IMG/VR virus record: IMGVR_UViG_3300045988_006903
Span: 1 to 18,172 of that record
DNA from: a virus
Strand: one strand, 5' to 3'
Length of the DNA stretch: 18,172 bases
A model generated the notes under the pieces. The model searched no databases, was not told where the DNA came from, and worked only from the letters and a program-made list of their open reading frames with translations. This document shows, one piece after another, positions 1-18,172 of this stretch. The number at the start of each line of letters is the position of its first letter. Position 1 is the first letter of the stretch. Made by a program: the position numbers and the translations under genes.

Positions 1-50
1 AAAAAGGAGGGGAGGGGCCCCAGCAGCTAACTCTTTTCCATAACCGCTCT

Positions 51-178
51 GTTGTGTGTTTGTGTTTTCTTTGGTCTTCTGTGTTTTTCATTGCTGTTGC
101 TGGTGGTCGTGTTGTGGTGGGTTGTTTTGTGTTTGGTTTTTTTGTGTGTTTTGGGTGTGTTGTTTTTTGTGGTGTGGT
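51..178 (+). repeat. Strand-asymmetric G+T tract inside the left ITR
   Basis: By hand count, 51..178 holds one A (position 90) and about 8 C on the + strand. 109..178 is 70 nt of G and T only. No ORF lies here. Confidence 0.9.
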
Positions 179-183
179 ATGAT
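175..183 (+). promoter_or_regulatory. Extended -10 promoter candidate (TGGTATGAT) for the ITR gene
   Basis: TGn plus TATGAT about 32 nt upstream of the ATG at 215. A GGAAGGAAG Shine-Dalgarno sequence lies at 201..209. It belongs to a recurring TGnTAnnAT family in this genome. Confidence 0.5.
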
Positions 184-214
184 GTGAATATCAACCGATA
201 GGAAGGAAGATAAA

Positions 215-415
215 ATGATTAGCAACAGCATCATTAAGAATTATGTCGAAGACTACGTCCTGAACAGTGACCAATTCGTCGATGAGTTTGACGTTGATGC
301 GATTGTCGAGAATCTGCATCATGTGGCTTTGGTCAATGATATGGTCATTGAGAAATATGATGATTGTGATTCGTTTCCGGCTGATGATTTTACGGAAGCG
401 TTTGAGGAGGCGTGA
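215..415 (+). CDS. ITR-encoded small acidic protein (66 aa), unknown function
   Basis: ATG with a strong SD (GGAAGGAAG). It has 11 Asp and 7 Glu against 2 Lys and 0 Arg. An identical protein is encoded at 17758..17958 (-). The only nucleotide difference is synonymous (GAG versus GAA). Confidence 0.75.
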   Translation: MISNSIIKNYVEDYVLNSDQFVDEFDVDAIVENLHHVALVNDMVIEKYDDCDSFPADDFTEAFEEA

Positions 416-416
416 C

Positions 417-485
417 ATGTTCGCCTCGGTGCTTGTTATTTGCGCGTGCGTTTTTGGTGTCGTTGTCGTTTTTGGCATGGTTTGA
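417..485 (+). CDS. Possible 22-aa hydrophobic peptide (MFASVLVICACVFGVVVVFGMV)
   Basis: The ATG at 417 is preceded by GAGGAGG at 404..410 with a 6-nt spacer. The peptide could form a single TM-like helix. It is very short, so the call is speculative. Confidence 0.25.
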   Translation: MFASVLVICACVFGVVVVFGMV

Positions 486-2513: not shown

Positions 2514-3533
2514 ATGTTGCCGCCAGACTCACCCCCCGCCGTTTCCATCCTTGCGGCGAGGGGTGTTTCATACTCACAGGGGGGGGCCGTGGCAAAACGC
2601 AAAAACCGCCGACGCGCTGACAATCTGAAACGCAACGCCGCAATCAGGTCGGCACAGGTACGCCGAGAGCGAGCAGTTAGAGATTACAGTACCGGACGAC
2701 TCCCCAAGAAAATCACCGAAACGTTTTTAGGGAACCTCAGTGCCCAACAGCTTGAACAGGTAGCACGACGCGTCGGGCAGGAGTTCGGAGAGCAGCAGCA
2801 GGCTTTAAGGGCGCGAGATAATGAACCGTATCAGGTTGTCCCCGACGTTCATGTCACGAAACTTGACCGTGAGATGGCGTCGCGTCCGCTGATTATTGAC
2901 GCGGAAATTGCCGCCGCACCGCCGAAACGTCGGAAAACATTGCGGCAGCAGCAGCGCCGCAGAGTTGAGGCACGGCAGAAAATCAAGCGTGCTCAACAAT
3001 TCGAGGCGCTGAGCATGGCCCGCTATACCGTGGGTGAAATGCGTGAAATGGAACGTGCAGGCGAATCCCCGTTTGACGTGCTGGGCACTCACACGGTCGG
3101 CGGTTCGGCCCGCGATGAACTCATGCGAAGCCGTGCGAACGTGTTCGGCTCAGAGCGTGGAATAAGCCATGCACGCGCGATGATTCGAGAGGGGAGCCGT
3201 AGGAAACTTGAGCGAGAAATGCTTGAATACGCCGGACTTATTGGACGTGCGCCGTTACGCGCCGGAACTAGGCGTATTCCCGAGAACGAGGGCGTTTCGG
3301 ATTTTGATAAAGTCGCACAGCAACTTGAAGCATTCGATTTCAGCGTAGCTCAAAGATTTGCCGCTTTGTCGAACCGTCAAAAACGATGGCTGATAAACAA
3401 CACGAATTTCAGCGTTGTAGTGCGCGAGGCAACGTGGTATAATGATAAGGCACATAAATGGGAGACTAAAGCAGATGCAGGAGATGTAGAGACACGACTT
3501 GACGAATGGATGACTAGCGCAGCAAGACACTAA
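2514..3533 (+). CDS. Terminal protein (replication primer) candidate
   Basis: Sits directly upstream of the protein-primed polymerase, as phi29 gene 3 does. It is highly Arg/Lys-rich with an N-terminal KRKNRRRADNLKRN stretch. At 314-339 aa it is comparable to known TPs. The start is uncertain: ATG 2514, or GTG 2589 preceded by AGGGGGGG. Confidence 0.55.
   Translation: MLPPDSPPAVSILAARGVSYSQGGAVAKRKNRRRADNLKRNAAIRSAQVRRERAVRDYSTGRLPKKITETFLGNLSAQQLEQVARRVGQEFGEQQQALRARDNEPYQVVPDVHVTKLDREMASRPLIIDAEIAAAPPKRRKTLRQQQRRRVEARQKIKRAQQFEALSMARYTVGEMREMERAGESPFDVLGTHTVGGSARDELMRSRANVFGSERGISHARAMIREGSRRKLEREMLEYAGLIGRAPLRAGTRRIPENEGVSDFDKVAQQLEAFDFSVAQRFAALSNRQKRWLINNTNFSVVVREATWYNDKAHKWETKADAGDVETRLDEWMTSAARH
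2530..2565 (+). promoter_or_regulatory. GC-rich hairpin in the TP leader or 5' coding region
   Basis: CACCCCCCGCC at 2530..2540 pairs with GGCGAGGGGTG at 2555..2565. That is an 11-bp stem with one mismatch and a 14-nt loop, followed by TTTCA. It could be an attenuator or weak terminator after the SSB gene. Confidence 0.3.
3435..3443 (+). promoter_or_regulatory. Internal extended -10 (TGGTATAAT) upstream of the polymerase gene
   Basis: Exact TGnTATAAT inside the 3' end of the TP gene, about 100 nt before the polymerase ATG. Confidence 0.35.
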
Positions 3534-3547
3534 AAAAGGATGGAATT

Positions 3548-5008
3548 ATGCGAGAGCGTCGAACGGCGGCAACAGACGGCGCAACATTATTGACGGATGA
3601 CGGTATAACGCCATTGACGGCGAATGCAGTCATCCGATTGACCATGCTTGACCACCATACGCGCGTATGGTGCGCTCACGGATGGCAGGATATCAAGCCC
3701 ATAGCGGCTCAACTATTGAAACGACTGCCGTTGCAATCGAATCCGGCCAAGGATGGAGTTTGGGGCACGTTCAATATTCGCGGCCATTTCTACAATTTTC
3801 GCGTGCGTATGGGCGGCGTCACCGTGGATTTTCTGGACGTGCGCAACATCACACGCGACGACGGACTGAATGTTTCACGTGAAACATTTGGTGGGGCGGA
3901 TGACTTGGAAACCACGTGGAACATCGCGCGGGAATGCGACGCCCTGAATCTCAAGGGCATGACCATAGCGTCTATGGCAATGGGCGATTACGTCGGCGGA
4001 GATTACGCAGGATTCAAACGCCATTTCCCGCCATTGGATAAAGCGGAATATCATCGGATGCGCCCCGCATACTATGGAGCGATAGTGTACAGCAGACCGG
4101 GCGAATATCGGGATTGCCGGAGTTGGGATGTGAATAGTCTTTATCCGAGCATCATGCACGACTTCGCCATGCCCGTAGGTTCTCCCGTCTGGTATGAGGG
4201 AGAATATCATTATGACGCTGATTATCCGCTGCATATCGATGTTATCTCGTTCGACGCGCGACTGAAAACGGGAAAAACGGCGACACTCACAAACATCCTA
4301 CCCGTATGGGGATACGAGGGCGAACGTATGGACAGCACGCTAGGCGTCGTCACCATGCCGGTGACCGACGTGGATTGGCAAACCCTGACGGAAAACTATG
4401 ATGTCCATGTGTGGGAGTATATCGGCGGCTGGAAATTCCGTAAATCACATGGACTCTACTATAATTACGTTGATAAATGGTTTCACGTGAAACAAACCGC
4501 AACCGGCGAGCGTCGTCAAATGGCGAAACTATTGCTTAACTCGCTGGTGGGAAAATTCGGGGCCTCGCTTTACCGGCCAATGCTTCACCCGAAGTCTTCC
4601 GGCGATGGCGGCGTGGATTTTACTGTGGACAAACCCGAGTCGGCCAACTCACTCGCATGGCTACCGACCGCCGCATATGTCAACGCCTACGGTCGGCAAA
4701 TATTGTCCCGCGCGATGAACGCGAACGCCGGTCGTGTGCTCTACGCCGATACAGACGGCATGATATTGGAGGGGTCAGATGCGCCCGCAGATATCGAAAC
4801 GGATAATAGGAAACTGGGCGCGTGGAAAAACGACCATACCTATGAAAAACTCCGTATCCTCGGCAATCGCAAATATTGCGGCGTAGAGACAGATGGCAGC
4901 ACGGTGATGCGGTTGAGTGGCGTGCATCGGGCTGCCCCTATCCCCTACGACGATTTTCTGCCGAGGTCACGCCATGTCAATGATGACGGCTGTTTTTTTG
5001 TGCTATAA
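3548..5008 (+). CDS. Family-B DNA polymerase, protein-primed (phi29-like)
   Basis: Motif A WDVNSLYPS (nt 4127..), motif B KLLLNSLVGKFG (4526..), motif C YADTDG (4742..) and KxY NRKYCG (4871..). Long stretches are colinear with phi29 DNAP, e.g. EGEYHYDADYPLHI versus EGKYVWDEDYPLHI, and RKLGAWKNDHTYEK versus KKLGYWAHESTFKR. SD is AAGGA. Confidence 0.95.
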   Translation: MRERRTAATDGATLLTDDGITPLTANAVIRLTMLDHHTRVWCAHGWQDIKPIAAQLLKRLPLQSNPAKDGVWGTFNIRGHFYNFRVRMGGVTVDFLDVRNITRDDGLNVSRETFGGADDLETTWNIARECDALNLKGMTIASMAMGDYVGGDYAGFKRHFPPLDKAEYHRMRPAYYGAIVYSRPGEYRDCRSWDVNSLYPSIMHDFAMPVGSPVWYEGEYHYDADYPLHIDVISFDARLKTGKTATLTNILPVWGYEGERMDSTLGVVTMPVTDVDWQTLTENYDVHVWEYIGGWKFRKSHGLYYNYVDKWFHVKQTATGERRQMAKLLLNSLVGKFGASLYRPMLHPKSSGDGGVDFTVDKPESANSLAWLPTAAYVNAYGRQILSRAMNANAGRVLYADTDGMILEGSDAPADIETDNRKLGAWKNDHTYEKLRILGNRKYCGVETDGSTVMRLSGVHRAAPIPYDDFLPRSRHVNDDGCFFVL

Positions 5009-5175: not shown

Positions 5176-5194
5176 TCTACCTTAAGAGGTGATT

Positions 5195-5536
5195 ATGGAC
5201 GACACCGAAAATGATGACAAGCCGGACACCACGCCCGACACCGAACCGGACGTGACCGCCGACGACAATACGCCGAACCCGGAGCCTGAAACGCAGGACG
5301 ATAATGAACCTGAGGACGCGGGCGACGACAAGAACGCCGACATGTCCGACCGGTTGAGCGCATTGGAGGCGACTGTGGCGGAATTGTCTAAAACCGTCGA
5401 AGCGATGCGCGACGCCGCCGCCGACCATGTGCTGAACGATGGCCCCGACGACAATGCGACGCCGGAGTCGGCTGAAATGACCGACGACGACTATAACGGC
5501 ACCTACAGTACTTTCGACGACCTATACGAAGACTGA
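5195..5536 (+). CDS. Scaffolding protein candidate (very acidic, with a coiled-coil segment)
   Basis: The ORF track starts at GTG 5189; the ATG at 5195 follows AAGAGG. The N-terminus is D/E/T/P-rich low complexity and the centre is helical (LSALEATVAELSKTVEAMRDAAA). It lies directly upstream of the capsid gene, as phi29 gene 7 does. Confidence 0.6.
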   Translation: MDDTENDDKPDTTPDTEPDVTADDNTPNPEPETQDDNEPEDAGDDKNADMSDRLSALEATVAELSKTVEAMRDAAADHVLNDGPDDNATPESAEMTDDDYNGTYSTFDDLYED

Positions 5537-5558
5537 CATTTAGGAAGGAATGATCATC

Positions 5559-7289
5559 ATGGCAACCACCCCAGCGGTGACGCCGAAGCAGCAGCTTCGA
5601 CCGCTCGCCGAATTTAACAACGCTCAGATTCTGAACATGATTCGCAACGAGGCGTCGCCGGAATACCAGCGGCGAATGCCTTCGGCTACTCAGATGAACA
5701 TGGACCGCCAGATGGCTACGCTTATGTCGTCTACCCAGTTGAAGAACGAATTTTATTCGGCACTGGTGAACCGTATCGGCGGCACTTATGTGAACACGTG
5801 GCGTTGGAATAATCCTCTCAGCGTTTTCCAACGTGCATCGCAGGCGTATGGCGACACGTGGCAGGAAATCGCCGTAGGCATGCCGCTTGCGCAGGTCTAT
5901 GACCCTAATGCGGAATATCTCGGCGCGGATAATTTCCGCAAGTGGAAAATCGACGTGGATTCGCTCTATCATCGTCTGGACTTCGCTCACTGGTATCCTG
6001 CGACCACGGATGACAAGACGCTTCAGCGTGCCTTCACTTCCGAAAACGGCTTGGCCTCGCTTACCTCGCAGATTCTCACATCCTGCTACAATGCAGCCGA
6101 GGTTGACCTTTTCGAAGCTCTATGCCACCAGTTCGTCGAATATGCGAAGCTCGGCGGGTATTGGCGAGTCCATATGGACAATGACCTCAACAATATGGGT
6201 AGTTCGGAGACGGACGCCCGTGACATGCTGCGCCAGATTCGCGCGTGGGCTGACACGCTTAAATTCGTGTCCACCAAGTACAACGCCCGTCACATGCCGA
6301 CTTTCGCGCGTCCGGACGAGCTCGTGCTGTTCTGCTCTCCGGAAGTCAAGTCGGCGCTTGACGTGCAGGGCCTCGCCACGGTATTCCAGCGCACGGACGC
6401 CGAGCCGACCATCGACCGGATTATCGTCATTCCTCAAGACAGGTTCGGCATGGATGGCGTACAGGCCATCCTGACGACCGACAAATTCCTGATTGACATT
6501 CCGGTCATTAACGAAATGACTCAGCAGACCAATCCGGTCAACATCAATTCGGTCAACCATTATCTGCATGTCCAGCACATCATCTCAGTGTCCGGCTTCG
6601 CTCCGGCTGTCATGTTCTGGACGGGCGCCGGTTCCACCGCGAACGTGGTGGCCCCTACCGGCACGCAGGCTCAGGCGCCGACGTTCCAGCTCAAGCTCGC
6701 CATGTATGGTGGCGGTTCGGAAACCCCGAGCGATGTGGCGCGTGGTGGCGCGGTGCAGGTCACCGCCGATACGACCATCACTAACGAAGGTGCCGCTACG
6801 TTCCGTTCGGATGCGGTCGAGTATCGTATCGGTGATACTGCTAAGCCGAAGAGCGATTACACATATATCTCGCCTACCGGCGTGCTGGTGGTCGGTCTCG
6901 ACGAACCGAACACCACCATCCCGATTACCGCAACCGCCTTGTACACGAATCCGGCGACGCCGGAAGTGCCGGGCACCGTGTCCGCAGCTCTGGACGTGCC
7001 AGTGGTCGGTGATGGTGTTATCGGATTCAATCCGTCCATCATCGCGTCCATTGCCGTGACCGTTCCGAGCGTGACTGTTGACCATACGGCGCAGGCGACC
7101 GCAGTGGCGACCATGATTGACGGACGAACCGCCGACGTGACCGCACAGGCCGCATGGACGTCCGGCACTCCGGCGAACGCCACCGTATCCGAATCGGGCG
7201 TGGTGACTGGCGTCAAGGAAGGCAGCTCTGATATCACCGGCACGCTGTTCGGCGTGTCTGGAAAAAAGAGCGTGACCGTGACCGCGTGA
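5559..7289 (+). CDS. Major capsid protein with C-terminal Ig-like (Big_2-type) domains
   Basis: Largest ORF after the scaffold gene. AGGAAGG at 5542..5548 favours the ATG at 5559 over 5550. The last ~80 aa (..VTVPSVTVDHTAQATAVATMIDGRTADVTAQAAWTSGTPANATVSESGVVTGVKEGSSDITGTLFGVSGKKSVTVTA) form a textbook Big_2 pattern, as in phi29 gp8. A second beta-rich Ig-like module precedes it (about 6660..6990). Confidence 0.85.
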   Translation: MATTPAVTPKQQLRPLAEFNNAQILNMIRNEASPEYQRRMPSATQMNMDRQMATLMSSTQLKNEFYSALVNRIGGTYVNTWRWNNPLSVFQRASQAYGDTWQEIAVGMPLAQVYDPNAEYLGADNFRKWKIDVDSLYHRLDFAHWYPATTDDKTLQRAFTSENGLASLTSQILTSCYNAAEVDLFEALCHQFVEYAKLGGYWRVHMDNDLNNMGSSETDARDMLRQIRAWADTLKFVSTKYNARHMPTFARPDELVLFCSPEVKSALDVQGLATVFQRTDAEPTIDRIIVIPQDRFGMDGVQAILTTDKFLIDIPVINEMTQQTNPVNINSVNHYLHVQHIISVSGFAPAVMFWTGAGSTANVVAPTGTQAQAPTFQLKLAMYGGGSETPSDVARGGAVQVTADTTITNEGAATFRSDAVEYRIGDTAKPKSDYTYISPTGVLVVGLDEPNTTIPITATALYTNPATPEVPGTVSAALDVPVVGDGVIGFNPSIIASIAVTVPSVTVDHTAQATAVATMIDGRTADVTAQAAWTSGTPANATVSESGVVTGVKEGSSDITGTLFGVSGKKSVTVTA

Positions 7290-7345: not shown

Positions 7346-7381
7346 GCCCGGAGCGTAATCCACGTGATTGCTCCGGGCTTT
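7346..7381 (+). terminator. Rho-independent terminator candidate after the capsid gene
   Basis: Perfect 9-bp GC-rich stem, GCCCGGAGC (7346..7354) with GCTCCGGGC (7370..7378). The loop is 15 nt and TTT follows. A second hairpin lies upstream at 7298..7321 (10 bp including one G:U). Confidence 0.55.
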
Positions 7382-7397
7382 GCCATACCGGAGGATA

Positions 7398-9725
7398 ATG
7401 ATGATTGACGACGCTAACCCTTACGTGGAATCTAATTTTTCTTGGGCGGAATGGACGCCAAACACGACGCTGAAACTCTGCCGCGTGCCGTGGGATGCTT
7501 CATATCGTGATATCGTACGGTTTGTTTCACGGGAAACGCAGCGAGAATGGTTTAATAAATTGGACGGCGTGGAATGCCGTCCGGCCACCATGCATATTTT
7601 CAATGCGCCCGCCCGTGTCGAACTGCCGTTTAACGAAGCATCAAACTGGAATTATCTCGTAGCCTATAACGACTACCCCGGTTTGGAGGGTCCACGCGCA
7701 TGGTATTATTTCATCCAGCGCGTCGAATACGTCAACGCCCATTGCACGCAATTGGTTTTAATGCTGGACGTCTGGCAGAGTTTCCAGCATGACGTCACAT
7801 TCGGCAGCTGCTATGTGACGCGCGGACATATCGGCGTAGCCAATGAACACCAGTGGGACGATTACGGGCGCACGTATCTCGCTTTGCCGGAGGGGTTGGA
7901 TACCGGCAGTGAGATGGTCACAACGGCACAGGAATACCAGAGCATTATCGAAGGTCAGCATTACGATATAGACGGCGGCGTTGATTGGGTCGATTACGGT
8001 TTGATTGTGGTCAGCACCACTAATCTCACCGACGACCCCGGCAACACTTCTGCCCCAAAATTGACTACCGCAACCGGGGCCATCTTCGAGCAGGAAACGG
8101 ACGGTTGTTCCGTTTATTACTGCGAGAATCGAATGGCGTATGTCGCCAACATCATGGCCCTTGGCGCACTGTTTCCTTGGGTGACGCAAGGTATTTGTGC
8201 CGTGTACATGGTGCCGAAAATTCCACAGGACTACGTGAGCCGATATGGGAATAGGGTTACGGAGATTTATGGACAGTCGGTGTCCGAGGAATATGGCAAC
8301 ATCTATTCTTTCAATTCGTCTCTCGATTCGGATTTACGCTACGAAGACGTCATGGCTATCGCGAACTTTCGCAATAAATTCAACATCCCCGCCCGATACC
8401 GGAATCTGCGCAAGCTCTGCTGCTATCCATTCTGCGTTATCGAATGTAGCTGTCTGAACGGCACGGTCATTACCTACCGACCTGAAGATATTCAATCCGA
8501 CACGCTCACCATTCGGGAAACCTACACTTACGCCCCGTCCGGCGCAAGAATCAATTTCTACATTCCCGGATACAATGAGGCCGGAGCGAGTACTATAGTT
8601 CCGCTGCGTATTAACGGCAAGGATATGGGCCTTCCGATAGACGGCGGCGAAATGCTCAACGCCAGTTTCGGCATCACCAATCTGCCCCACTTTTCCGTGG
8701 TCAACAACGGGGGGGCGTTGGCTATGGTAAACAGTGCGTACACCCGAGCCTACGCACAGGAATCAGCCCAATGGACTAGGCAGAAGGCTTTGACTTCGGC
8801 TAACGTAGCCAACTCCAATGCCGCATTGCAGCGTGAATACGCCACGCGGCAAACCAATTGGGCAAACGAGAATCGGACGGCAACCAATGCCATCACGGCA
8901 AACTCGCTCAACCAGTCTCTCGCCATCGGACAAAATCAAACCAGTCAGATGGCTAATCTCCAAGTGGAGCAAAATATCAAGAGCAACAATCTCAATGGTA
9001 TGGCCAGTATCATCGGCGGGGGACTGAACGCCGTCGCATCCTGCAACCCGCTAGGCGTGGTGAACGCAGTTGGCGGGGCATTCCTCGGCTCAGCGCAGAC
9101 GGATATCGCCAATTACGGCATCAATTCGTCTGCTGCTGTCTCCAACTCCACGGCGGCGGCGAATACGGCGAATCAGATTGCCACCAATGCAGCGGCCACG
9201 TCGCAGGCCAACGCCTACACGAGCGGAGCGACCGCACTGGGCAACCAGCTGAACGCCATCGTATCGCAAGCGAATTACGGACTGGCCTCGTATGCGGCTC
9301 AAGGTGACTATCAGAACGCCATCGCCGGAATCAACGCTCAGGTGCAGCAGATGCAACTGACTCCGCCGACCACTTCGGGAGCGCTCGGCGGTGATATGTT
9401 CAACCTGAGCAACGGAATTATGGGCGTGTTGGTGCGGTTCAAAACGTGCGCGCCAAGCGCGCTGAGGGCGGCAGGTGAATACATGCTACGCTATGGATAT
9501 TTTGTCCAACGATTCGTCACCCCTCCCGCCTCGCTGGAATGCATGGAGAAATTCACGTTCTGGCAGATGCAGGAAGCGTATGTGCGGGGCACGTTGCCGG
9601 AGGAATACCGCTTGACCATCAAGGGTATGTTTGAACGTGGCGTGACGGTCTGGAACAAGCCTGAGTATATCGGTGTGACCGACTGGGCGGACAACGAGCC
9701 ACTGCCGGGCATTGGCTACGAGTGA
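7398..9725 (+). CDS. Tail knob / distal tail tube protein (phi29 gp9-like)
   Basis: The ORF track starts at TTG 7368, inside the terminator. ATG 7398 or 7401 follows GGAGG at 7390..7394. The N-terminal ~150 aa follow the phi29 gp9 pattern: ..VPWDASYRDIVRF.S...Q..WF...., ..NYLVAYNDYPG....WYYFI.RVEYVN...T.L.L.LDVWQSF..DV.F....V.RGH. The position between capsid and connector matches phi29. Confidence 0.8.
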   Translation: MMIDDANPYVESNFSWAEWTPNTTLKLCRVPWDASYRDIVRFVSRETQREWFNKLDGVECRPATMHIFNAPARVELPFNEASNWNYLVAYNDYPGLEGPRAWYYFIQRVEYVNAHCTQLVLMLDVWQSFQHDVTFGSCYVTRGHIGVANEHQWDDYGRTYLALPEGLDTGSEMVTTAQEYQSIIEGQHYDIDGGVDWVDYGLIVVSTTNLTDDPGNTSAPKLTTATGAIFEQETDGCSVYYCENRMAYVANIMALGALFPWVTQGICAVYMVPKIPQDYVSRYGNRVTEIYGQSVSEEYGNIYSFNSSLDSDLRYEDVMAIANFRNKFNIPARYRNLRKLCCYPFCVIECSCLNGTVITYRPEDIQSDTLTIRETYTYAPSGARINFYIPGYNEAGASTIVPLRINGKDMGLPIDGGEMLNASFGITNLPHFSVVNNGGALAMVNSAYTRAYAQESAQWTRQKALTSANVANSNAALQREYATRQTNWANENRTATNAITANSLNQSLAIGQNQTSQMANLQVEQNIKSNNLNGMASIIGGGLNAVASCNPLGVVNAVGGAFLGSAQTDIANYGINSSAAVSNSTAAANTANQIATNAAATSQANAYTSGATALGNQLNAIVSQANYGLASYAAQGDYQNAIAGINAQVQQMQLTPPTTSGALGGDMFNLSNGIMGVLVRFKTCAPSALRAAGEYMLRYGYFVQRFVTPPASLECMEKFTFWQMQEAYVRGTLPEEYRLTIKGMFERGVTVWNKPEYIGVTDWADNEPLPGIGYE

Positions 9726-9737: not shown

Positions 9738-10688
9738 ATGAGTAGGTCTAAAAAGAATCGAGTTGGCGGTGCGTTGCACCCGCGCGGCAATTACGCGAAA
9801 GCACGCGCCGTCACGCTTGATGACATGTATCTTCATTTGCTGATGGAACTCGCGTTGAACCGCTTCAGTTGGCGCGGATTGCCGCCAACCGTGGATGAGC
9901 GTTGGCTGGAAATATGTCTGTGCGAGTACGGGTGCGCGTTGTTTTTCGAGGACAAGCGTATCGGCAGGTTCCTTGTGACTCAGGCGGGTTATCAAGGAAG
10001 GTTGAATGTGTATAATAATCCGACATGCTTCGAGCCGGTAGGCGTCAACTACCATTACCGGCAGCTCAAGGCCGGTTCGGAATGCATTCCTATTTGGGAT
10101 AATCGAATGCGCGTCGGATTCAAGCCGACATTATGGCAGTACGCACGACGCCTTGCCGATATCGACAAGGCGTATGATGTGAATCTGGAGAGTCTGAAAC
10201 TGCCTACCATCATCACAGCCGACCCCCGCACCAAACTTACCGTGCAGAACATGCTTCAGCAACGGCAGGACGGACAGGACTATATCATCGGATACGATTC
10301 GCTTGACCCCGGCTCGACGTTCCAACCATGGCCGAACACTACACCTTACTTGTTGGATAAGTTCATCCAGCAAAAAGCGCAGGTGACTAACGAGGTACTG
10401 GGATATCTCGGCATTCAATCGTCCGGCACGGAAAAAAAGGAACGGCTGATATCGGACGAAGTGGCGCAGGCTAACGAGAAAGTAGACGTTTTTCGACTGA
10501 GTTTTCTTAAGGCGCGGCAGACTGCGGCGACTGAGATTAACCGATTGTGGCCGCAGCTTAACGTCTGGGTGGAGTATGCGGACGCGCAAAGCTCCGGCGT
10601 GCCGAACGCTCTTGACTCTAGTGCAAGCGGCACGACGGATATTGACATGCCTGCATCATACGACGCGGGTATCGGAGGTGTATTGTGA
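9738..10688 (+). CDS. Connector / portal (upper collar) protein, phi29 gp10-like
   Basis: 316 aa against 309 aa for gp10. It has a basic N-terminus (MSRSKKNR versus MARKRSN). FSWRGLPPTV matches FEWENLPPTI, and EKKERLISDEV matches EKKERMVTDEV. Confidence 0.9.
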   Translation: MSRSKKNRVGGALHPRGNYAKARAVTLDDMYLHLLMELALNRFSWRGLPPTVDERWLEICLCEYGCALFFEDKRIGRFLVTQAGYQGRLNVYNNPTCFEPVGVNYHYRQLKAGSECIPIWDNRMRVGFKPTLWQYARRLADIDKAYDVNLESLKLPTIITADPRTKLTVQNMLQQRQDGQDYIIGYDSLDPGSTFQPWPNTTPYLLDKFIQQKAQVTNEVLGYLGIQSSGTEKKERLISDEVAQANEKVDVFRLSFLKARQTAATEINRLWPQLNVWVEYADAQSSGVPNALDSSASGTTDIDMPASYDAGIGGVL

Positions 10689-11476
10689 TACAGGATTTTA
10701 GCGCCTATGCGATGGCGACCCCCGGCGAGTACACCGAAACCCTTGGCAATCTTATCGCATTCGGATATGACACCGACGACAAGCTGCACCTTAGCGCCGA
10801 CTATTACCCGATTTACAACGAATCTCACCGCGCGGAGTTGAATGAAAAAATCGTTCGCCATTACGCGCTCAGGGAAATAGGTCAGGAAACCGCCCAGCAG
10901 TTCATTTTTTACTTGGGTATGACCATGGCGGAAATCATGCCATATTTCAATGAACGTTACCGGACATTGGACTTGGAATATAATCCGTTGGATTCTATGG
11001 ATATGACGACGGATAGCGAGAGCGGCAGCGAATCCCAGTCGTCCGGCAAAGCGTCAAGTACGCAGGATTCAACCAGCTCCAGCACATCCAAGTCGGATAA
11101 TTCCAGCACTACCACGTCGAAGAGTTTTGATAGTGACGTGCCTCAAACCGGAGTTGTGGGCGACTTCGCACGCTACGCCTCCCACGCAAACGAATCGCAG
11201 GCGGACAGCTCCGGCACCGCGTCCAGTTCGCAGGATTCAGCCAGCCACACCACCGCGCAAAGCGCAACCGACTATCAGCATGATTCAAGCAATTCCAAAG
11301 GCAAGAGCCACGTGAGCGGGCGTAGTCAGAGCGCCATGAGTCTGATTCAGGAATACCGGCAGGCGATTATCAACGTGGATATGGAAATCGTTCGCAGCCT
11401 CGAACCGTGCTTTATGCAGGTATGGGGCACTTATGATACAATTTTCAGCAACCACCATAATTATTATGGAGAATGA
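10685..11476 (+). CDS. Lower collar protein candidate
   Basis: GTG start after GGAGGTG, overlapping the portal stop. Its position right after the connector matches phi29 gene 11. It contains a Ser/Thr-rich internally duplicated segment. The call rests mainly on synteny. Confidence 0.55.
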   Translation: MIQDFSAYAMATPGEYTETLGNLIAFGYDTDDKLHLSADYYPIYNESHRAELNEKIVRHYALREIGQETAQQFIFYLGMTMAEIMPYFNERYRTLDLEYNPLDSMDMTTDSESGSESQSSGKASSTQDSTSSSTSKSDNSSTTTSKSFDSDVPQTGVVGDFARYASHANESQADSSGTASSSQDSASHTTAQSATDYQHDSSNSKGKSHVSGRSQSAMSLIQEYRQAIINVDMEIVRSLEPCFMQVWGTYDTIFSNHHNYYGE

Positions 11477-12125: not shown

Positions 12126-12545
12126 ATGACCGCAACCAACAAGACAGCGAATTACGAACTCAGCCAGTTCGTCGGCTCCGACCGCCCCACATGGCTCGGG
12201 GATTATAACAGCGATATGGCGAAAATCGACGCGCAGATGAAGCGGAACGCGGACGACATCGCGTCGGCAACAGCAGGCGGTCTCACCTCGGTACACCATA
12301 CCACCGACCTCACAGGTAACGGTACGTCCGGCTCCCCGCTGGGCGTGGCAAGCACTATCGCCAAGAAAACCGACATCCCGGACGTGAGCGGATTCGCCAC
12401 CACCTCCGCCCTCACCTCGGGGCTTGCAGGCAAGGTCGATAAAACCGCCTCGCAGCCCGGAACGCTCGGATTGACGGCGACCGAACTCGATTCGATGTAC
12501 AAGGACGCGGACGGCATCGTCCGTATTGGCAGAGCCAACGCCTAG
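12126..12545 (+). CDS. Short tail fibre / appendage protein
   Basis: SD AAAGGA. The N-terminal module NYELSQFVGSDRPTWLGDYNSDMAKIDAQM is paralogous to the N-terminus of the next gene. A fibre-like Gly/Ser/Thr-rich segment (TDLTGNGTSGSPLGVAS) follows. Confidence 0.6.
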   Translation: MTATNKTANYELSQFVGSDRPTWLGDYNSDMAKIDAQMKRNADDIASATAGGLTSVHHTTDLTGNGTSGSPLGVASTIAKKTDIPDVSGFATTSALTSGLAGKVDKTASQPGTLGLTATELDSMYKDADGIVRIGRANA

Positions 12546-14072: not shown

Positions 14073-15293
14073 ATGAGTATGGTAGACGTACAAGCGTGGT
14101 TGGAACGAACCCAAAACCAATTTTGGGATATGGACGGGGCTTATGGTGCCCAATGTTGGGACCTGTGGGCAAAATACTGCATGGACTGCTATAATCTGTC
14201 GTTGGGGGACTGTATTACCCCGACCGGATACGCCGAGGGGAATTACACTCACTTTCCTACTACAGCGGCAGTGGGGCGCGTGTTCGAGAAAAAAAGCGCC
14301 GACTATACGCCCGTAATGGGAGACGTTGTATTTTGGACGTTCGGGAGTCGAATCTACACAGGCAGTCACGTGGCTATCGTCTGGGGTGGCGTCCAAGGGG
14401 ATAATATCGATGTGCTGACACAAAACCCGACGCCCGCGGTCCACCAATCGCTACCGCTCATGAAGGGTTCGCAGCTACTCGGCTATCTGCATCCCACGGC
14501 ACTACCGGAACCTCCCGAATCTGGGTACAACCCCACTGGGGGCAATAATCCGGGCGTGAGTGTAGACGGCGATATATCCACGTGGATTCAGATGCAGGGC
14601 GATAACCTCATATATCACAGCGGCTCGGGCACAACATCATCACAAGCCATTTTCTACAAGGCGAGCGCCCAGACATGGATATACCGTGGCGGCAAAGGTC
14701 AGCCGAACGCCGACCAAGGACAGGGCACGCCAAGCGTGGGCGACGGGGAGAGTTCATACGCGCTCTACGTTATTGGCACCGTTGAATCATCATTGCGCTG
14801 GGATGCAGTCGAATCAAATAATCAGGGTATCGGCATCGCACAATGGTCATTCGGCAGACGCTTACAGGTGTTGGACGCCATGAAGGCGGTTGACGCCGAG
14901 GGGTATAAAGCGTTTGCCGCTGCCGCGCCAAATATCGCCACGCTTATGGAGTCAGGCGGCACGTTTGACAGGGCAATGACTAGTAGCGAGGTCGTGGCGT
15001 TTCAGACGTGGGCGCGGCGCACGGAATCACGACAGGGACAGCGGGACCAATTCGCCAAGGATTACGAGGGCTACCCGCAAACGTATGATGATGCGAAAAT
15101 GCAGATACTATGGACATGCGCATATCATCAAAGTCCGGCAGGAGCGTTGGACGTGCCGCATTCTTCATCGCTCACGCAACTGTATAACAATATCCTCAAT
15201 ACACCCCCATTCGGGCCATACGGGACACGCTACAATACCGCCTATTCGCTGCTGAATGTGTGGGACGGGTCTAGTGCGTCACCGAACTTTTAG
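14073..15293 (+). CDS. Virion-associated peptidoglycan hydrolase: N-terminal CHAP peptidase plus C-terminal tail-lysozyme-like domain
   Basis: CHAP motifs are DGAYGAQCWDLW (Cys codon 14154..14156) and GSHVAIVW (His codon 14367..14369). The C-terminal half has GTVESS....ESNNQGIGIAQWSFGRRLQVL, resembling the phage tail lysozyme family. Its position corresponds to phi29 gp13. No SD is present; a possible leaderless start at ATG 14079 lies behind TGGTACCAT. Confidence 0.8.
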   Translation: MSMVDVQAWLERTQNQFWDMDGAYGAQCWDLWAKYCMDCYNLSLGDCITPTGYAEGNYTHFPTTAAVGRVFEKKSADYTPVMGDVVFWTFGSRIYTGSHVAIVWGGVQGDNIDVLTQNPTPAVHQSLPLMKGSQLLGYLHPTALPEPPESGYNPTGGNNPGVSVDGDISTWIQMQGDNLIYHSGSGTTSSQAIFYKASAQTWIYRGGKGQPNADQGQGTPSVGDGESSYALYVIGTVESSLRWDAVESNNQGIGIAQWSFGRRLQVLDAMKAVDAEGYKAFAAAAPNIATLMESGGTFDRAMTSSEVVAFQTWARRTESRQGQRDQFAKDYEGYPQTYDDAKMQILWTCAYHQSPAGALDVPHSSSLTQLYNNILNTPPFGPYGTRYNTAYSLLNVWDGSSASPNF

Positions 15294-15326: not shown

Positions 15327-15338
15327 ATCATTATTGTA

Positions 15339-15347
15339 TGGTAGAAT
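15339..15347 (+). promoter_or_regulatory. Extended -10 promoter candidate (TGGTAGAAT) for the packaging ATPase
   Basis: TGn plus TAGAAT, then 7 nt, then ATG 15355 with no SD. This is the same leaderless geometry seen at 527 and 9738. Confidence 0.45.
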
Positions 15348-15354
15348 GGATATT

Positions 15355-16452
15355 ATGGAGAGACTGTTAGCGGAAGACGATTATTACGATTATGGGCGCG
15401 TGTTGTCCTATCACGCGCCTTGGATGTTCGTAATCGGAGCACGCGGCCTCGGTAAAACTTATGGTGCCAAAAAATTGGTAATCGGTGACTGGATTAAGAA
15501 ACGATGGCAGTTCATTTATCTTCGCCGGACAGCCGAGGAGCAGAAGAATAAAGGCACGTGGTTTGCGGATATCGCGGAGCAATATCCAGAACTAGAGTTT
15601 AGGATATCCGGCAGTCAGGCCGAATGCCACTGGACAGATGACAGGGACGCAACCACCGACAAGCATGGCAAGAAACGCCCGACATGGCACATCATGGGAT
15701 ATTTTATCGCCCTATCGCAGGCTGGACAGGTGAAATCAGTTGCCTACCCCAGAGTACGAACGATTATCTTCGACGAAATATTCCCCGATAATATGCGATA
15801 CCTTGGCGGAGAAGTCACGGCACTTGAGGAATTTTACAACACGGTTGACCGTTGGAATGACCGAGTCCGCGTTATCATGTGCAGCAATGCCGTAACGTTG
15901 GCTAATCCATATTTCAGCGCGTTTGATATCAACCTAAAACCGCAGCTAGACAATCACACACAATATCAGCGATATTGCGATGGGTTTATTATGGTGGAAT
16001 TAGCCGATTACGGCGGGTTCAGCACAAAGGTTGCCACATCCAAATTCGGCACGTTCCTACGTAAATATGATGAGAATTATGCGAATTATGCAATCGACAA
16101 CGATTTTAGAGATAATGCCAATGCTCTCATTAGTGATTTTAATAACGCCGGTTATGCGTTCTCATTAAGAACCACCGAATACGGTATTTTCAACATCTAT
16201 CAGCAATTAAGCGATACCGACGAAATCTTATATATCATCACAAAAAAACAGCCTAAAATCACAAGAAATTTTACATTTGACTATAGACTGGTCGATAACG
16301 ATTGCATAATGCTCAAACGTTCGGACGACATGACACAGAAAATATTGAACGCCTATCGCGTCGGTAGATTACGATTCGAAACCCCGCAAATTAAGGCGGA
16401 GTTCAGTATGATTCTTGGCGGCTTATTGCAGCAATCAGGCATAAGAAAGTGA
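15355..16452 (+). CDS. DNA encapsidation (packaging) ATPase, phi29 gp16-like
   Basis: Walker A is VIGARGLGKTY (15436..15459) and Walker B is RTIIFDEI (15763..15777). The size is about 365 aa. The ORF track begins at TTG 15334, with alternative ATGs at 15346 and 15355. Confidence 0.9.
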   Translation: MERLLAEDDYYDYGRVLSYHAPWMFVIGARGLGKTYGAKKLVIGDWIKKRWQFIYLRRTAEEQKNKGTWFADIAEQYPELEFRISGSQAECHWTDDRDATTDKHGKKRPTWHIMGYFIALSQAGQVKSVAYPRVRTIIFDEIFPDNMRYLGGEVTALEEFYNTVDRWNDRVRVIMCSNAVTLANPYFSAFDINLKPQLDNHTQYQRYCDGFIMVELADYGGFSTKVATSKFGTFLRKYDENYANYAIDNDFRDNANALISDFNNAGYAFSLRTTEYGIFNIYQQLSDTDEILYIITKKQPKITRNFTFDYRLVDNDCIMLKRSDDMTQKILNAYRVGRLRFETPQIKAEFSMILGGLLQQSGIRK

Positions 16453-16459
16453 GGAATAT

Positions 16460-16825
16460 ATGCCAACCCATGAATTAATTGTTATCGGCATCGTGTTTCT
16501 ATTGGTGCTTATTGACTACGTAACAGGCGTGGTCAACGCAATCATGCACGGCGAATTGTCCAGCGAGAAAATGCGGAGGGGGCTTGGTCACAAGTTCGCG
16601 TACTTGGCGATTATTTGCGTCGCGTTAATCGTAGAATACGGTTCGGATTACATTGACTTGGGAATCGAACTACCGGTATTCATGCCGGTATGCGTAGGCA
16701 TCTGCCTAATTGAAATTACCTCGATTATGGAGAATTGCGTAAAAATCAATCCAGAATTAAGCGGCTCAAACATTCTGGACATTTTCAATATCGAGAGGAA
16801 GGAAAACAATGATAAAGAGGATTGA
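16460..16825 (+). CDS. Holin (phage_holin_4_1-like)
   Basis: SD GAGGAA. It has TM segments with the characteristic LIDYVTGVVNAIMHGELSSEKMRRGLGHKFAYL pattern and a charged C-terminal tail (RKENNDKED). It lies directly upstream of the endolysin. Confidence 0.8.
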   Translation: MPTHELIVIGIVFLLVLIDYVTGVVNAIMHGELSSEKMRRGLGHKFAYLAIICVALIVEYGSDYIDLGIELPVFMPVCVGICLIEITSIMENCVKINPELSGSNILDIFNIERKENNDKED

Positions 16826-16855: not shown

Positions 16856-17701
16856 ATGGACGGCGTGAAATGGATAGGTTCACCGAACCACTACAATGGA
16901 CGGAACGGATACGCCGTGACCCACATAACACTACACATCATGGTCGGCCACCTTGCGGGAACAGACAGCGTATTCTTAAATGCCGGTTCGCAGGCAAGCG
17001 CACATTACGGCATTGGCGCAGACGGGACTGTACATCAATACGTAAGCGAGAGTGACGGCAGTTACAGCGACGCCAATTTCGCGTCAAACAACTCGACAAT
17101 CAGCATAGAGCACGAAGGCGGCATGGCCGGAATACCATGTACCAAGTCGTGCATGGACGCTTCCGCCCGACTATGCGCCGATATTGCGCGACGTCAAGGA
17201 TGGACGCGACTATGGCACGACGGACTCAACGGCAACATCTGGCTACACCGCGAAGTGCCCGGCACCGACCACTACGGGTGCCCAGACAGGACGGTAAACG
17301 GACTTGATGTAAACTACGTCATTGACAAAGCAAACCAAATACTAGGAAGGGACGACGAAGTGTCAGCAGCAGACGTAACCACAGGACTCTACCAAACCAA
17401 AGGCAACGACGGACGAAACTTATTCGACGGAGTTATACAGACACGGAACGAGCTGAAAGACAGGGCCATAGATGCGCTATATCAAGCCAAAGGCAACGAC
17501 GGACGAAATCTATTCGACGGAGTTATACAAGCACGCTGGGATATTGCCGAACTGAAGACCATGCTCACAGCACAAACAGCAGCCATCGAAGCACTCAGCA
17601 AGACAGTAGGGGCTAACCCAGAAACCATAGCCCAGACAGTGCAGAACGCTGTTAAAAAGAAACTAGACAGCCTGCATATCACCGTAACAGACAAACAGTA
17701 A
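16856..17701 (+). CDS. Endolysin: N-acetylmuramoyl-L-alanine amidase (Amidase_2/PGRP type) with an unusual repeat-containing C-terminus
   Basis: SD GAAGG. Motifs are ITLHIMVGHL, SAHYGIGADGTVHQYV, NNSTISIEHEG and HREVPGTDHYGCPD, which look like the Zn-ligand His/His/Cys pattern. The C-terminal ~110 aa holds two 20-aa repeats and a helical tail. No LysM, SH3 or CW-binding motif is recognisable. Confidence 0.9.
   Translation: MDGVKWIGSPNHYNGRNGYAVTHITLHIMVGHLAGTDSVFLNAGSQASAHYGIGADGTVHQYVSESDGSYSDANFASNNSTISIEHEGGMAGIPCTKSCMDASARLCADIARRQGWTRLWHDGLNGNIWLHREVPGTDHYGCPDRTVNGLDVNYVIDKANQILGRDDEVSAADVTTGLYQTKGNDGRNLFDGVIQTRNELKDRAIDALYQAKGNDGRNLFDGVIQARWDIAELKTMLTAQTAAIEALSKTVGANPETIAQTVQNAVKKKLDSLHITVTDKQ
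17387..17536 (+). repeat. In-frame tandem duplication (90-nt period) in the endolysin C-terminus
   Basis: 17387..17446 encodes LYQTKGNDGRNLFDGVIQTR and 17477..17536 encodes LYQAKGNDGRNLFDGVIQAR. The DNA is nearly identical, including a shared CCAAAGGCAACGACGGACGAAA core. Confidence 0.85.
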
Positions 17702-17710
17702 GAGAGACAA

Positions 17711-17750
17711 AGTAAAAGCCCCTAGGTTTATCGACCTAGGGGCTTTTACT
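17711..17750. terminator. Bidirectional terminator between the late operon and the right ITR gene
   Basis: Perfect 16-bp stem AGTAAAAGCCCCTAGG/CCTAGGGGCTTTTACT with an 8-nt loop. T-rich sequence is at or after the stem on both strands. It sits between convergent stop codons at 17701 and 17758. Confidence 0.75.
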
Positions 17751-17757
17751 TTATCTC

Positions 17758-17958
17758 TCACGCTTCCTCAAACGCTTCCGTAAAATCATCAGCCGGAAAC
17801 GAATCACAATCATCATATTTCTCAATGACCATATCATTGACCAAAGCCACATGATGCAGATTCTCGACAATCGCATCAACGTCAAACTCATCGACGAATT
17901 GGTCACTGTTCAGGACGTAGTCTTCGACATAATTCTTAATGATGCTGTTGCTAATCAT
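17758..17958 (-). CDS. Second copy of the ITR-encoded small acidic protein (66 aa)
   Basis: The protein is identical to that of 215..415. It is transcribed inward from the right end, and the promoter and SD are duplicated with the ITR. Confidence 0.75.
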   Translation of the reverse strand: MISNSIIKNYVEDYVLNSDQFVDEFDVDAIVENLHHVALVNDMVIEKYDDCDSFPADDFTEAFEEA

Positions 17959-17989
17959 TTTATCTTCCTTCCTATCGGTTGATATTCAC

Positions 17990-17998
17990 ATCATACCA
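17990..17998 (-). promoter_or_regulatory. Mirror copy of the ITR promoter candidate (TGGTATGAT on the - strand)
   Basis: Reverse complement of 175..183. Confidence 0.5.
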
Positions 17999-18122
17999 CA
18001 CCACAAAAAACAACACACCCAAAACACACAAAAAAACCAAACACAAAACAACCCACCACAACACGACCACCAGCAACAGCAATGAAAAACACAGAAGACC
18101 AAAGAAAACACAAACACACAAC
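17995..18122 (-). repeat. Mirror copy of the G+T tract in the right ITR
   Basis: Exact reverse complement of 51..178, reading as C+A on the + strand. Confidence 0.9.
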
Positions 18123-18172
18123 AGAGCGGTTATGGAAAAGAGTTAGCTGCTGGGGCCCCTCCCCTCCTTTTT

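Follow-up and report, generated by a model that had tools for sequence, protein, structure and literature searches.

A conserved, highly acidic 66-residue protein encoded in both inverted terminal repeats of a putative phi29-like phage genome

In phage T7 the first gene on the entering end is gene 0.3, whose product, Ocr, acts against restriction by DNA mimicry, and in the first-step-transfer region of T5 and the terminal-redundancy module of SPO1 the early anti-host genes lie in terminal repeats, where they are diploid and form the first DNA to enter the cell. In phi29 it is the right end that enters first. High acidity is not specific to DNA mimics; T7 Gp2 and T4 AsiA are small acidic phage proteins that bind RNA polymerase (RNAP). 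The DNA of T5 enters in two steps, and in both phi29 and T5 early genes are required on the first-entering DNA (PMC2771126). The p56 protein of phi29 is an early, acidic DNA mimic that blocks its host's uracil-DNA glycosylase (UDG), and the terminal repeat of phi29 is only 6 nt long (PMC4974454).

Here we describe an 18,172-bp stretch of DNA (the window), which looks like a complete linear genome of a protein-primed, phi29-like phage and which carries a gene for a very acidic protein of 66 aa in each of its two inverted terminal repeats (ITRs). In the literature searched we found no description of genes inside the ITRs of phi29-like phages. Early host-takeover genes encoded in terminal repeats are already known; a single-gene mobile ITR cassette of protein-primed phages, encoding a new protein family, was not found in that literature.

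Like the gene for Ocr, the window gene is the first behind the first host-RNAP promoters, in a genome that is read one way, and encodes a very acidic protein that is, by prediction, helical. Ocr, however, has 116 aa, forms an elongated dimer of unrelated fold (there was no Foldseek match) and is encoded by a single-copy gene outside the terminal repeat. With T5 and SPO1 the locus shares a gene inside the terminal repeat with a host-RNAP promoter, that of the window being assigned by sequence and conservation only, but the repeats of those large phages are direct, ∼10-13 kb long and hold many genes, whereas the window has a 415-nt inverted repeat with one gene in a protein-primed 18-kb genome. 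The right copy of the window gene resembles gene 17 and the right early operon of phi29 in being an inward-reading early unit beside the late/lysis end, although p17 is much larger, has no detectable similarity to the window protein and is encoded in single copy outside the ITR. Accessory host-interaction genes duplicated in ITRs with recombination-shifted boundaries are also a feature of poxviruses and asfarviruses, but these viruses infect eukaryotes, and their genomes have hairpin ends and ITRs on the kilobase scale. Finally, p56 of phi29 is, like the window protein, small (56 versus 66 aa), acidic, early (as we infer for the window gene), free of enzymatic motifs and made by a protein-primed phage (PMC4974454).

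Genome organization and the terminal cassette

The gene map of the window was drawn from PHROG scans and runs along the + strand, with genes for SSB (2030-2467), a family-B DNA polymerase (PolB; 3548-5008), the phi29-type major head protein (5550-7289), a tail protein (7368-9725), the upper collar or portal (9738-10688), the lower collar (10685-11476), an endolysin (14073-15293), the packaging ATPase (15334-16452), a holin (16460-16825) and another endolysin (16856-17701). The likely terminal protein (TP) is a 339-aa product with a pI of 10.7, encoded at 2514-3533 just upstream of PolB. Directly upstream of the major head gene, positions 5189-5536 encode a low-complexity protein of 115 aa that is rich in Asp, Glu, Pro and Thr (34% Asp/Glu); it matched no PHROG and probably serves as scaffolding protein. 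Searches of the window for Rfam families and tRNAs yielded no meaningful match and no pRNA.

Among cultured phages, those nearest to the window are BD811P1-3, BP1 and BadAztec/BadAargau, podophages of Bifidobacterium whose PolB is only 35-37% identical, and the related contigs derive from human-gut metagenomes. The sole stretch of the window with megablast similarity to a cultured phage is ∼250 bp long (514-760) and is 81% identical to the gp20/gp21 region of BP1, which points to mosaic exchange of early genes. Given that the closest cultured relatives are Bifidobacterium phages and that this patch is shared with BP1, the host of the window phage is probably a Bifidobacterium.

The two ITRs, at 1-415 (+) and 17758-18172 (-), are each 415 nt long and differ at a single base, where G at position 409 stands opposite A at its mirror, 17764. 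The difference lies 6 nt from the ITR boundary and is synonymous (GAG/GAA, Glu65). The left ITR begins 5'-AAAAAGGAGGGG, and its inner limit coincides exactly with the TGA stop codon of the 66-aa gene. The terminus 5'-AAAAAGGAGGGGAGGGGCCCCAGCAGC was also found at the ends of two independent metagenomic contigs (L004 and L007). The segment leading from the terminus to the promoter contains a tract at 50-177 (+; mirror 17996-18123, -) that, on the 5'-ended strand, is 94% G+T, 5% C and 1% A, and GT-rich ITR tracts of a similar kind are seen in relatives. Such a tract could be an origin, a nucleation region for a DNA-binding protein or a feature of displaced-strand asymmetry.

The left copy of the 66-aa gene (215-415, +) heads the early (replication) gene block as its first cistron, and the right copy (17758-17958, -) converges on the lysis genes. 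Both give the identical protein, MISNSIIKNYVEDYVLNSDQFVDEFDVDAIVENLHHVALVNDMVIEKYDDCDSFPADDFTEAFEEA, which has 11 Asp and 7 Glu, 2 Lys and no Arg (27% Asp/Glu versus 3% Lys/Arg; pI ∼4.05; net charge ∼-16); the only other product of the window genome with comparable acidity is the putative scaffold protein of 115 aa. There is no credible ORF distal to the gene, the upstream ORFs sitting in the 94% G+T tract.

An extended -10 promoter of the form TGnTATGAT (TGGTATGAT) can be placed by sequence and conservation at 175-183 (+) for the left copy and by sequence at 17990-17998 (-) for the right, and a Shine-Dalgarno sequence (SD), GGAAGGAAG, lies at 201-209 (+; mirror 17964-17972, -), 5 nt before the ATG. 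The promoter is kept in all relatives as TG-n-TAT(G/A)(A/G)T and is present in the ITRs of BP1 and BD811P2 as well. The same holds for a TATC box and for the SD (..GAAAGGA..ATAAAATG), the SD taking the form GAAAGGA or GGAAGGA in relatives. Hence the claims made from the sequence alone, of two identical acidic ORFs that are the first genes at either end, each with its own promoter and a strong SD inside the ITR, agree with what we find. A generic -35/-10 promoter scan did not flag the site because it has no -35 element. In the window as a whole the motif TGKTATRRT occurs 7 times versus 1.05 expected, the + strand copies in the early region being at 175, 511, 1096 and 3435. Extended -10 motifs on the minus strand were also seen at 12202-12210 and 12295-12303. 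Both lie in the late-gene block, which has no evident gene on that strand, and they may be antisense promoters or chance matches.

The two copies differ in what follows them. At 17708-17753, 4 nt past the right copy, a perfect stem (at least 20 pairs by scan, ∼26 by fold; dG -46.8 kcal/mol, z -11) forms a bidirectional intrinsic terminator, which makes the right copy a monocistronic unit and also closes the converging + strand endolysin gene. The hairpin GCCCCTAGG...CCTAGGGGC is likewise found 3' of the 66-aa gene in relatives. The left copy has no terminator and continues into a mini-ORF at 417-485 (+), which starts 1 nt past the stop codon (TGAcATG), and then into the early genes. This hydrophobic ORF of 22 aa (MFASVLVICACVFGVVVVFGMV) is kept with synonymous changes at four related loci (L002, L005, L007 and L033) and is probably co-transcribed with the left copy; it may specify a small membrane peptide made together with the acidic protein. 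Further into the genome another extended -10 promoter, TGTTATAAT, spans 511-519 and overlaps the first ATG of an ORF for a small protein with two TM segments (518-673), in which an in-frame ATG at 527 could serve as a leaderless start. For the 66-aa gene itself, its position and conserved promoter suggest early expression.

The acidic protein family and its predicted fold

A search of 5.8 billion proteins recovered 119 homologue clusters at E ≤1e-5 (best 1.5e-30) that are 64-89% identical to the window protein. Nearly all are exactly 66 aa long, unnamed and encoded on contigs of 16-19 kb, and they come from human-gut metagenomes. The family is a narrow one, since an index-free exhaustive HMM search of 1.84 billion cluster representatives at the 50% level gave only 20 matches. 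Scans of Pfam, PHROGs and NCBIfam with the protein gave no matches, an exact-sequence look-up returned no record, tblastn against 50,697 phage records produced chance matches only, and no copy of the gene was found in 185,579 species-representative genomes of bacteria and archaea.

Among 19 homologues (the window gene and 18 IMG/VR loci) the median pairwise dN/dS is 0.14 at a mean dS of ∼1, a substitution pattern that identifies the ORF as a real protein-coding gene under purifying selection. Selection on the protein had been proposed before, on the ground that the only nucleotide difference between the two copies is synonymous. The proposal is upheld by the dN/dS value, whereas the single difference, lying as it does between homogenised ITR copies, is uninformative on this point.

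Across the family the extreme acidity is conserved, with 15 positions at least 80% Asp/Glu and a net charge that ranges from -11 to -20; hydrophobic positions are likewise conserved to at least 80%. A high, conserved negative charge with few basic residues is a feature that the protein shares with DNA mimics, which make up a functional class and not a homologous family. A pair of histidines (His35-His36) and Cys51, which sits in a D-C-D triplet, show 88-98% conservation in the family and are absent from homologues of the BD811P2 type; these residues could make up a metal site or a patch that contacts the target.

The homologues just mentioned are more distant. When gp1 of BD811P2 (BD811P2_00001, 61 aa, with homologues in BD811P1 and BD811P3) was compared with the 66-aa family by hhalign, the alignment covered 56 columns with a P-value of 1e-4 and 57% probability, which makes it a probable distant homologue. 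Like the window gene, it is in first position behind the same ITR promoter and SD, and its product is very acidic (15 Asp/Glu, 1 Lys/Arg). In contrast to the window gene it is single-copy, the other end of BD811P2 driving an unrelated acidic protein of 105 aa, and its product is without the His-His and Cys positions. We had considered the right end as the ancestral site of the gene and dropped this idea, given that the BD811P2 homologue sits at the early end.

AlphaFold2, run with the family alignment, predicts a compact all-alpha domain with helices at residues 4-17, 27-40, 48-53 and 56-65 and no sheet. With one alignment (A1) the best pLDDT was 87.8 and two of the five models were confident, and with a broader one (A3) four of five reached 84-88. 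Acidic residues fall on the predicted helices at i, i+3/4, i+7/8 spacing (9/12/13, 28/32 and 57/58/61/64/65), and the other helix faces carry hydrophobic residues. Foldseek searches with two of the models against the PDB and with one against BFVD returned nothing below E=1, and nothing below E=3 in the PDB; the top match, at E=1.1 and TM 0.6, was the uncharacterised gp616 of Bacillus phage G. The sole PDB match in the profile search, SPP1 G39P (1no1), had E=1.5 and was treated as noise. The confidently predicted four-helix domain has no match in the PDB or BFVD.

The sequence-only reading had also pointed to phi29 p56, Ocr and ArdA as models, and kinship with these is not borne out, sequence matches (for p56) and predicted-fold matches alike being absent from our searches. 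Our searches gave the 66-aa protein no match, in sequence or structure, among known DNA mimics, anti-restriction proteins, anti-CRISPRs and UDG inhibitors. A profile search of all PDB sequences, the p56 entries included, did not recover p56, Ugi or SAUGI, and structural similarity to Ocr or ArdA was not detected in the PDB or BFVD at E <1. The fold of p56 is a dimer in which each subunit has three antiparallel beta strands and a helix (PMC3239192), and the protein carries the motifs E-x-x-Y and F-x-D-S-Y (PMC10303552), whereas the 66-aa protein is predicted to be all-alpha, has no sequence similarity to p56 and contains neither motif. Ugi and SAUGI are alpha/beta proteins that dock on Ung through their first beta strand, with an ESI-type motif (PMC10303552), and no beta strand of this kind is predicted in the 66-aa protein. 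As judged by sequence and modelled fold, the protein lies outside the p56, Ugi/SAUGI, Ocr and ArdA families.

Movement of the gene and of the repeat boundaries

A scan of IMG/VR found the 66-aa gene at 36 loci in 28 contigs, always within a few hundred bases of the contig end. Identical copies stand at both ends in 8 of these contigs, and in every contig with both ends assembled the gene is inside both ITRs. By nucleotide and protein comparisons the carriers split into three lineages, all of which include such contigs. In the window-like lineage the core proteins are mostly 90-98% identical to those of the window and the 66-aa protein 70-91%; in a BP1-like lineage the corresponding values are 34-50% and 70-86%; and in a third lineage, with genomes of ∼16 kb, they are 23-36% and 63-79%. 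Across lineages the 66-aa protein is therefore 63-91% identical versus 23-50% for MCP, portal, ATPase and PolB, and inside the window's own lineage it is less conserved than the core proteins. Because the 66-aa protein stays similar where the core proteins have diverged, the history of the gene is uncoupled from that of the genomes that carry it, and these comparisons indicate a gene that is horizontally mobile between the three lineages and retains its terminal ITR position.

The gene was not found in BP1, whose physical end is marked by an adapter, and a contig ∼95% identical to BP1 (loci L036/L037) has it at both ends. It is hence accessory, and dispensable in at least one cultured phage. 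In the BP1 record (GenBank PQ571273, L001) the Illumina adapter ACACTCTTTCCCTACACGACGCTCTTCCGATCT occupies 259-291, placing the physical end ∼236 nt before the gp1 ATG. Positions 1-291 of this record consist of a duplicated 3' fragment of gp1, filler and the adapter, so that the true genome end is at ∼292, and ∼89 nt are missing from the other end.

The inner boundary of the ITR shifts from one genome to the next. It lies at the stop codon of the 66-aa gene or at most 1 nt past it in the window and in three other contigs (L004/L005, L014/L015 and L033/L034), and past the terminator in L036/L037. In contig IMGVR_UViG_3300045988_032762 (L023/L024) the ITR is at least 522 nt long and ends at the ATG of the next gene, past the terminator and a second promoter, and in L011/L012 it reaches at least 686 nt. 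In the records of cultured phages the ITR measures 55 nt in BD811P2 (L038, 1-55), where it ends 5 nt into the CDS, and 148 nt in BP1 (L001, 380-527) and 227 nt in BadAargau2 (L039, 1-227), where it ends at the ATG or 3 nt before it; all three phages have unlike genes at their two ends behind the same ITR promoter. Boundaries at starts and stops suggest end-to-end recombination at the repeated promoter/SD modules, by which first-gene cassettes are swapped.

The genes at the ends vary as a set; their products are small and for the most part acidic. At 520-762 of L023/L024, one end encodes a BP1 gp1-like acidic protein of 80 aa (MMISNMTFKEKNELL...EDMEAFARTW) and the other an unrelated protein, also of 80 aa. 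Orthology of BP1 gp1 and the 66-aa protein was rejected, as hhalign gave no significant similarity and both genes co-occur in contig 032762; what BP1 gp1 and the family have in common is a short C-terminal F-x-x-(D/E)D-x-EAF motif only, plus the terminator.

Proposed role of the acidic protein

The reading that we favour, with a confidence that falls a little short of even, is that the ITR holds a self-contained immediate-early cassette, made up of a host-RNAP extended -10 promoter, an SD, the 66-aa ORF and, at the right end, a terminator, and that its product is an immediate-early decoy that binds a host protein. Host RNAP would transcribe the cassette inward from each genome end on the arrival of that end in the cell, the right copy as a monocistronic unit shut by the bidirectional terminator and the left copy as the head of the early operon. 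The product, modelled as a compact four-helix protein with acidic surface stripes, would probably inhibit a basic or nucleic-acid-binding host protein stoichiometrically, or serve as a decoy for it; the candidate targets are nucleases of restriction and other defence systems, repair enzymes, nucleoid proteins and RNAP. Its consequent role would be that of a host-takeover or anti-defence factor, which may work by DNA mimicry, and its composition fits such mimicry. Residence in the ITR would arise from, and be maintained by, end-to-end copying (panhandle or template-switch gene conversion) of the sort typical of protein-primed linear genomes; it would double the gene dose and make expression independent of which end enters first.

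That the gene comes first and that its product is extremely acidic are both in keeping with an early protein that inhibits a nucleic-acid-binding host protein, or acts as a decoy for it, in stoichiometric fashion. Counter-defence and host-takeover genes are usually accessory and horizontally mobile, and a role of this kind is likely because a real, selected gene moves between unrelated phages. A host target is favoured over a phage target because the gene is dispensable and mobile and remains conserved between phages with only 27-37% identity in their putative TP and PolB. The original proposal of an acidic early anti-defence factor is supported in part, by a real, selected gene in first position, by conserved acidity and by an accessory, mobile distribution; a match to the named DNA mimics and the argument from the synonymous difference do not hold.

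A more specific version, in which the cassette encodes a new-fold DNA-mimic or decoy protein directed against host defences and spread among unrelated protein-primed gut phages by genome-end exchange, with ITR residence being adaptive in that this is the first and only gene expressed from whichever end enters, ahead of the exposure of further phage DNA, is conceivable, although we consider it unlikely. The duplication in the ITRs may be adaptive, through dose and independence of entry polarity, or it may be a neutral by-product of ITR homogenisation and of boundary drift at repeated promoter/terminator modules.

Drift of that kind is central to an alternative that we hold to be possible but on balance improbable, namely that an ordinary early accessory gene, such as an RNAP or sigma modulator or a superinfection-exclusion gene, was captured by an ITR boundary that drifts by recombination at repeated promoter, SD and terminator modules, and that its presence in both ITRs has no adaptive meaning. 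The inner boundary does vary, from 55 to at least 686 nt, and is often at a start or stop codon or past the terminator; the same ITR promoter drives unrelated first genes in relatives; and many small acidic phage proteins, T7 Gp2 and T4 AsiA among them, bind RNAP. However, the gene is in both ITRs wherever both ends are assembled, and this placement in three independent lineages suggests that the arrangement is more than one-off drift. Given that RNAP is itself a host nucleic-acid-binding target, this alternative also overlaps with the decoy reading.

A role in the phage's own DNA transactions seems quite unlikely. The protein would here assist internalisation or the first rounds of replication in the manner of p17, or would act as an acidic chaperone for the putative TP, which is strongly basic. 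Phi29 needs early p17 to draw in the remaining DNA (PMC2771126), and if the lysis (right) end of the window genome enters first, the right cassette would be the only inward-reading unit on the first-entering DNA, which is why a p17-like function retains some plausibility. Yet BP1 is viable without the gene and has a 95%-identical relative with it, an acidic protein is itself unlikely to bind DNA, and if its partner were a co-evolving phage protein, conservation of 63-86% would be hard to explain where the putative TP and PolB share only 27-37% identity or cannot be aligned.

We regard inhibition of UDG, in which the protein would be a functional analogue of p56 that protects single-stranded replication intermediates, as very unlikely. 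The protein is small, acidic and, by its position, probably early, and belongs to a phi29-like phage whose replication is protein-primed (PolB and SSB), a general description that p56 also fits (PMC4974454). UDG inhibitors are known that arose from unrelated folds (PMC3794593). A UDG-specific role would be an analogy with p56, and it finds no support in our data, since the profile and Foldseek searches gave no match to p56, Ugi or SAUGI, the all-alpha prediction departs from the beta-containing structures of these inhibitors (PMC3239192; PMC10303552), the p56 motifs are absent, and BP1 replicates without the gene. That the ORF is not a gene at all and only a chance frame in a purely cis-acting origin or packaging repeat, as its shortness, its want of a family annotation and its place within a replication-origin repeat might suggest, is effectively refuted by the dN/dS of 0.14 at dS ∼1, the length and frame maintained in ∼120 clusters, the conserved hydrophobic-core and acidic positions and the confident predicted fold.

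Lytic phages of Bifidobacterium are few and little understood, and their early genes lack annotation altogether. The present analysis defines a conserved, mobile, promoter-equipped cassette at the ends of many phi29-like genomes from the human gut, whose protein has no relatives of known kind or fold in the searches made here. The system is a tractable one, with BP1 as a natural null and BD811P1-3 as carriers of a probable distant homologue. If the reading as a new-fold anti-defence protein were true, the cassette would stand to protein-primed phages as Ocr does to T7 and as anti-defence leading regions do to plasmids. Were the protein a counter-defence decoy, it would represent a new family of inhibitors, the ITRs of protein-primed phages would be exchangeable slots for the genes expressed first, and their content would help to account for the host range of phages that infect a key gut commensal.
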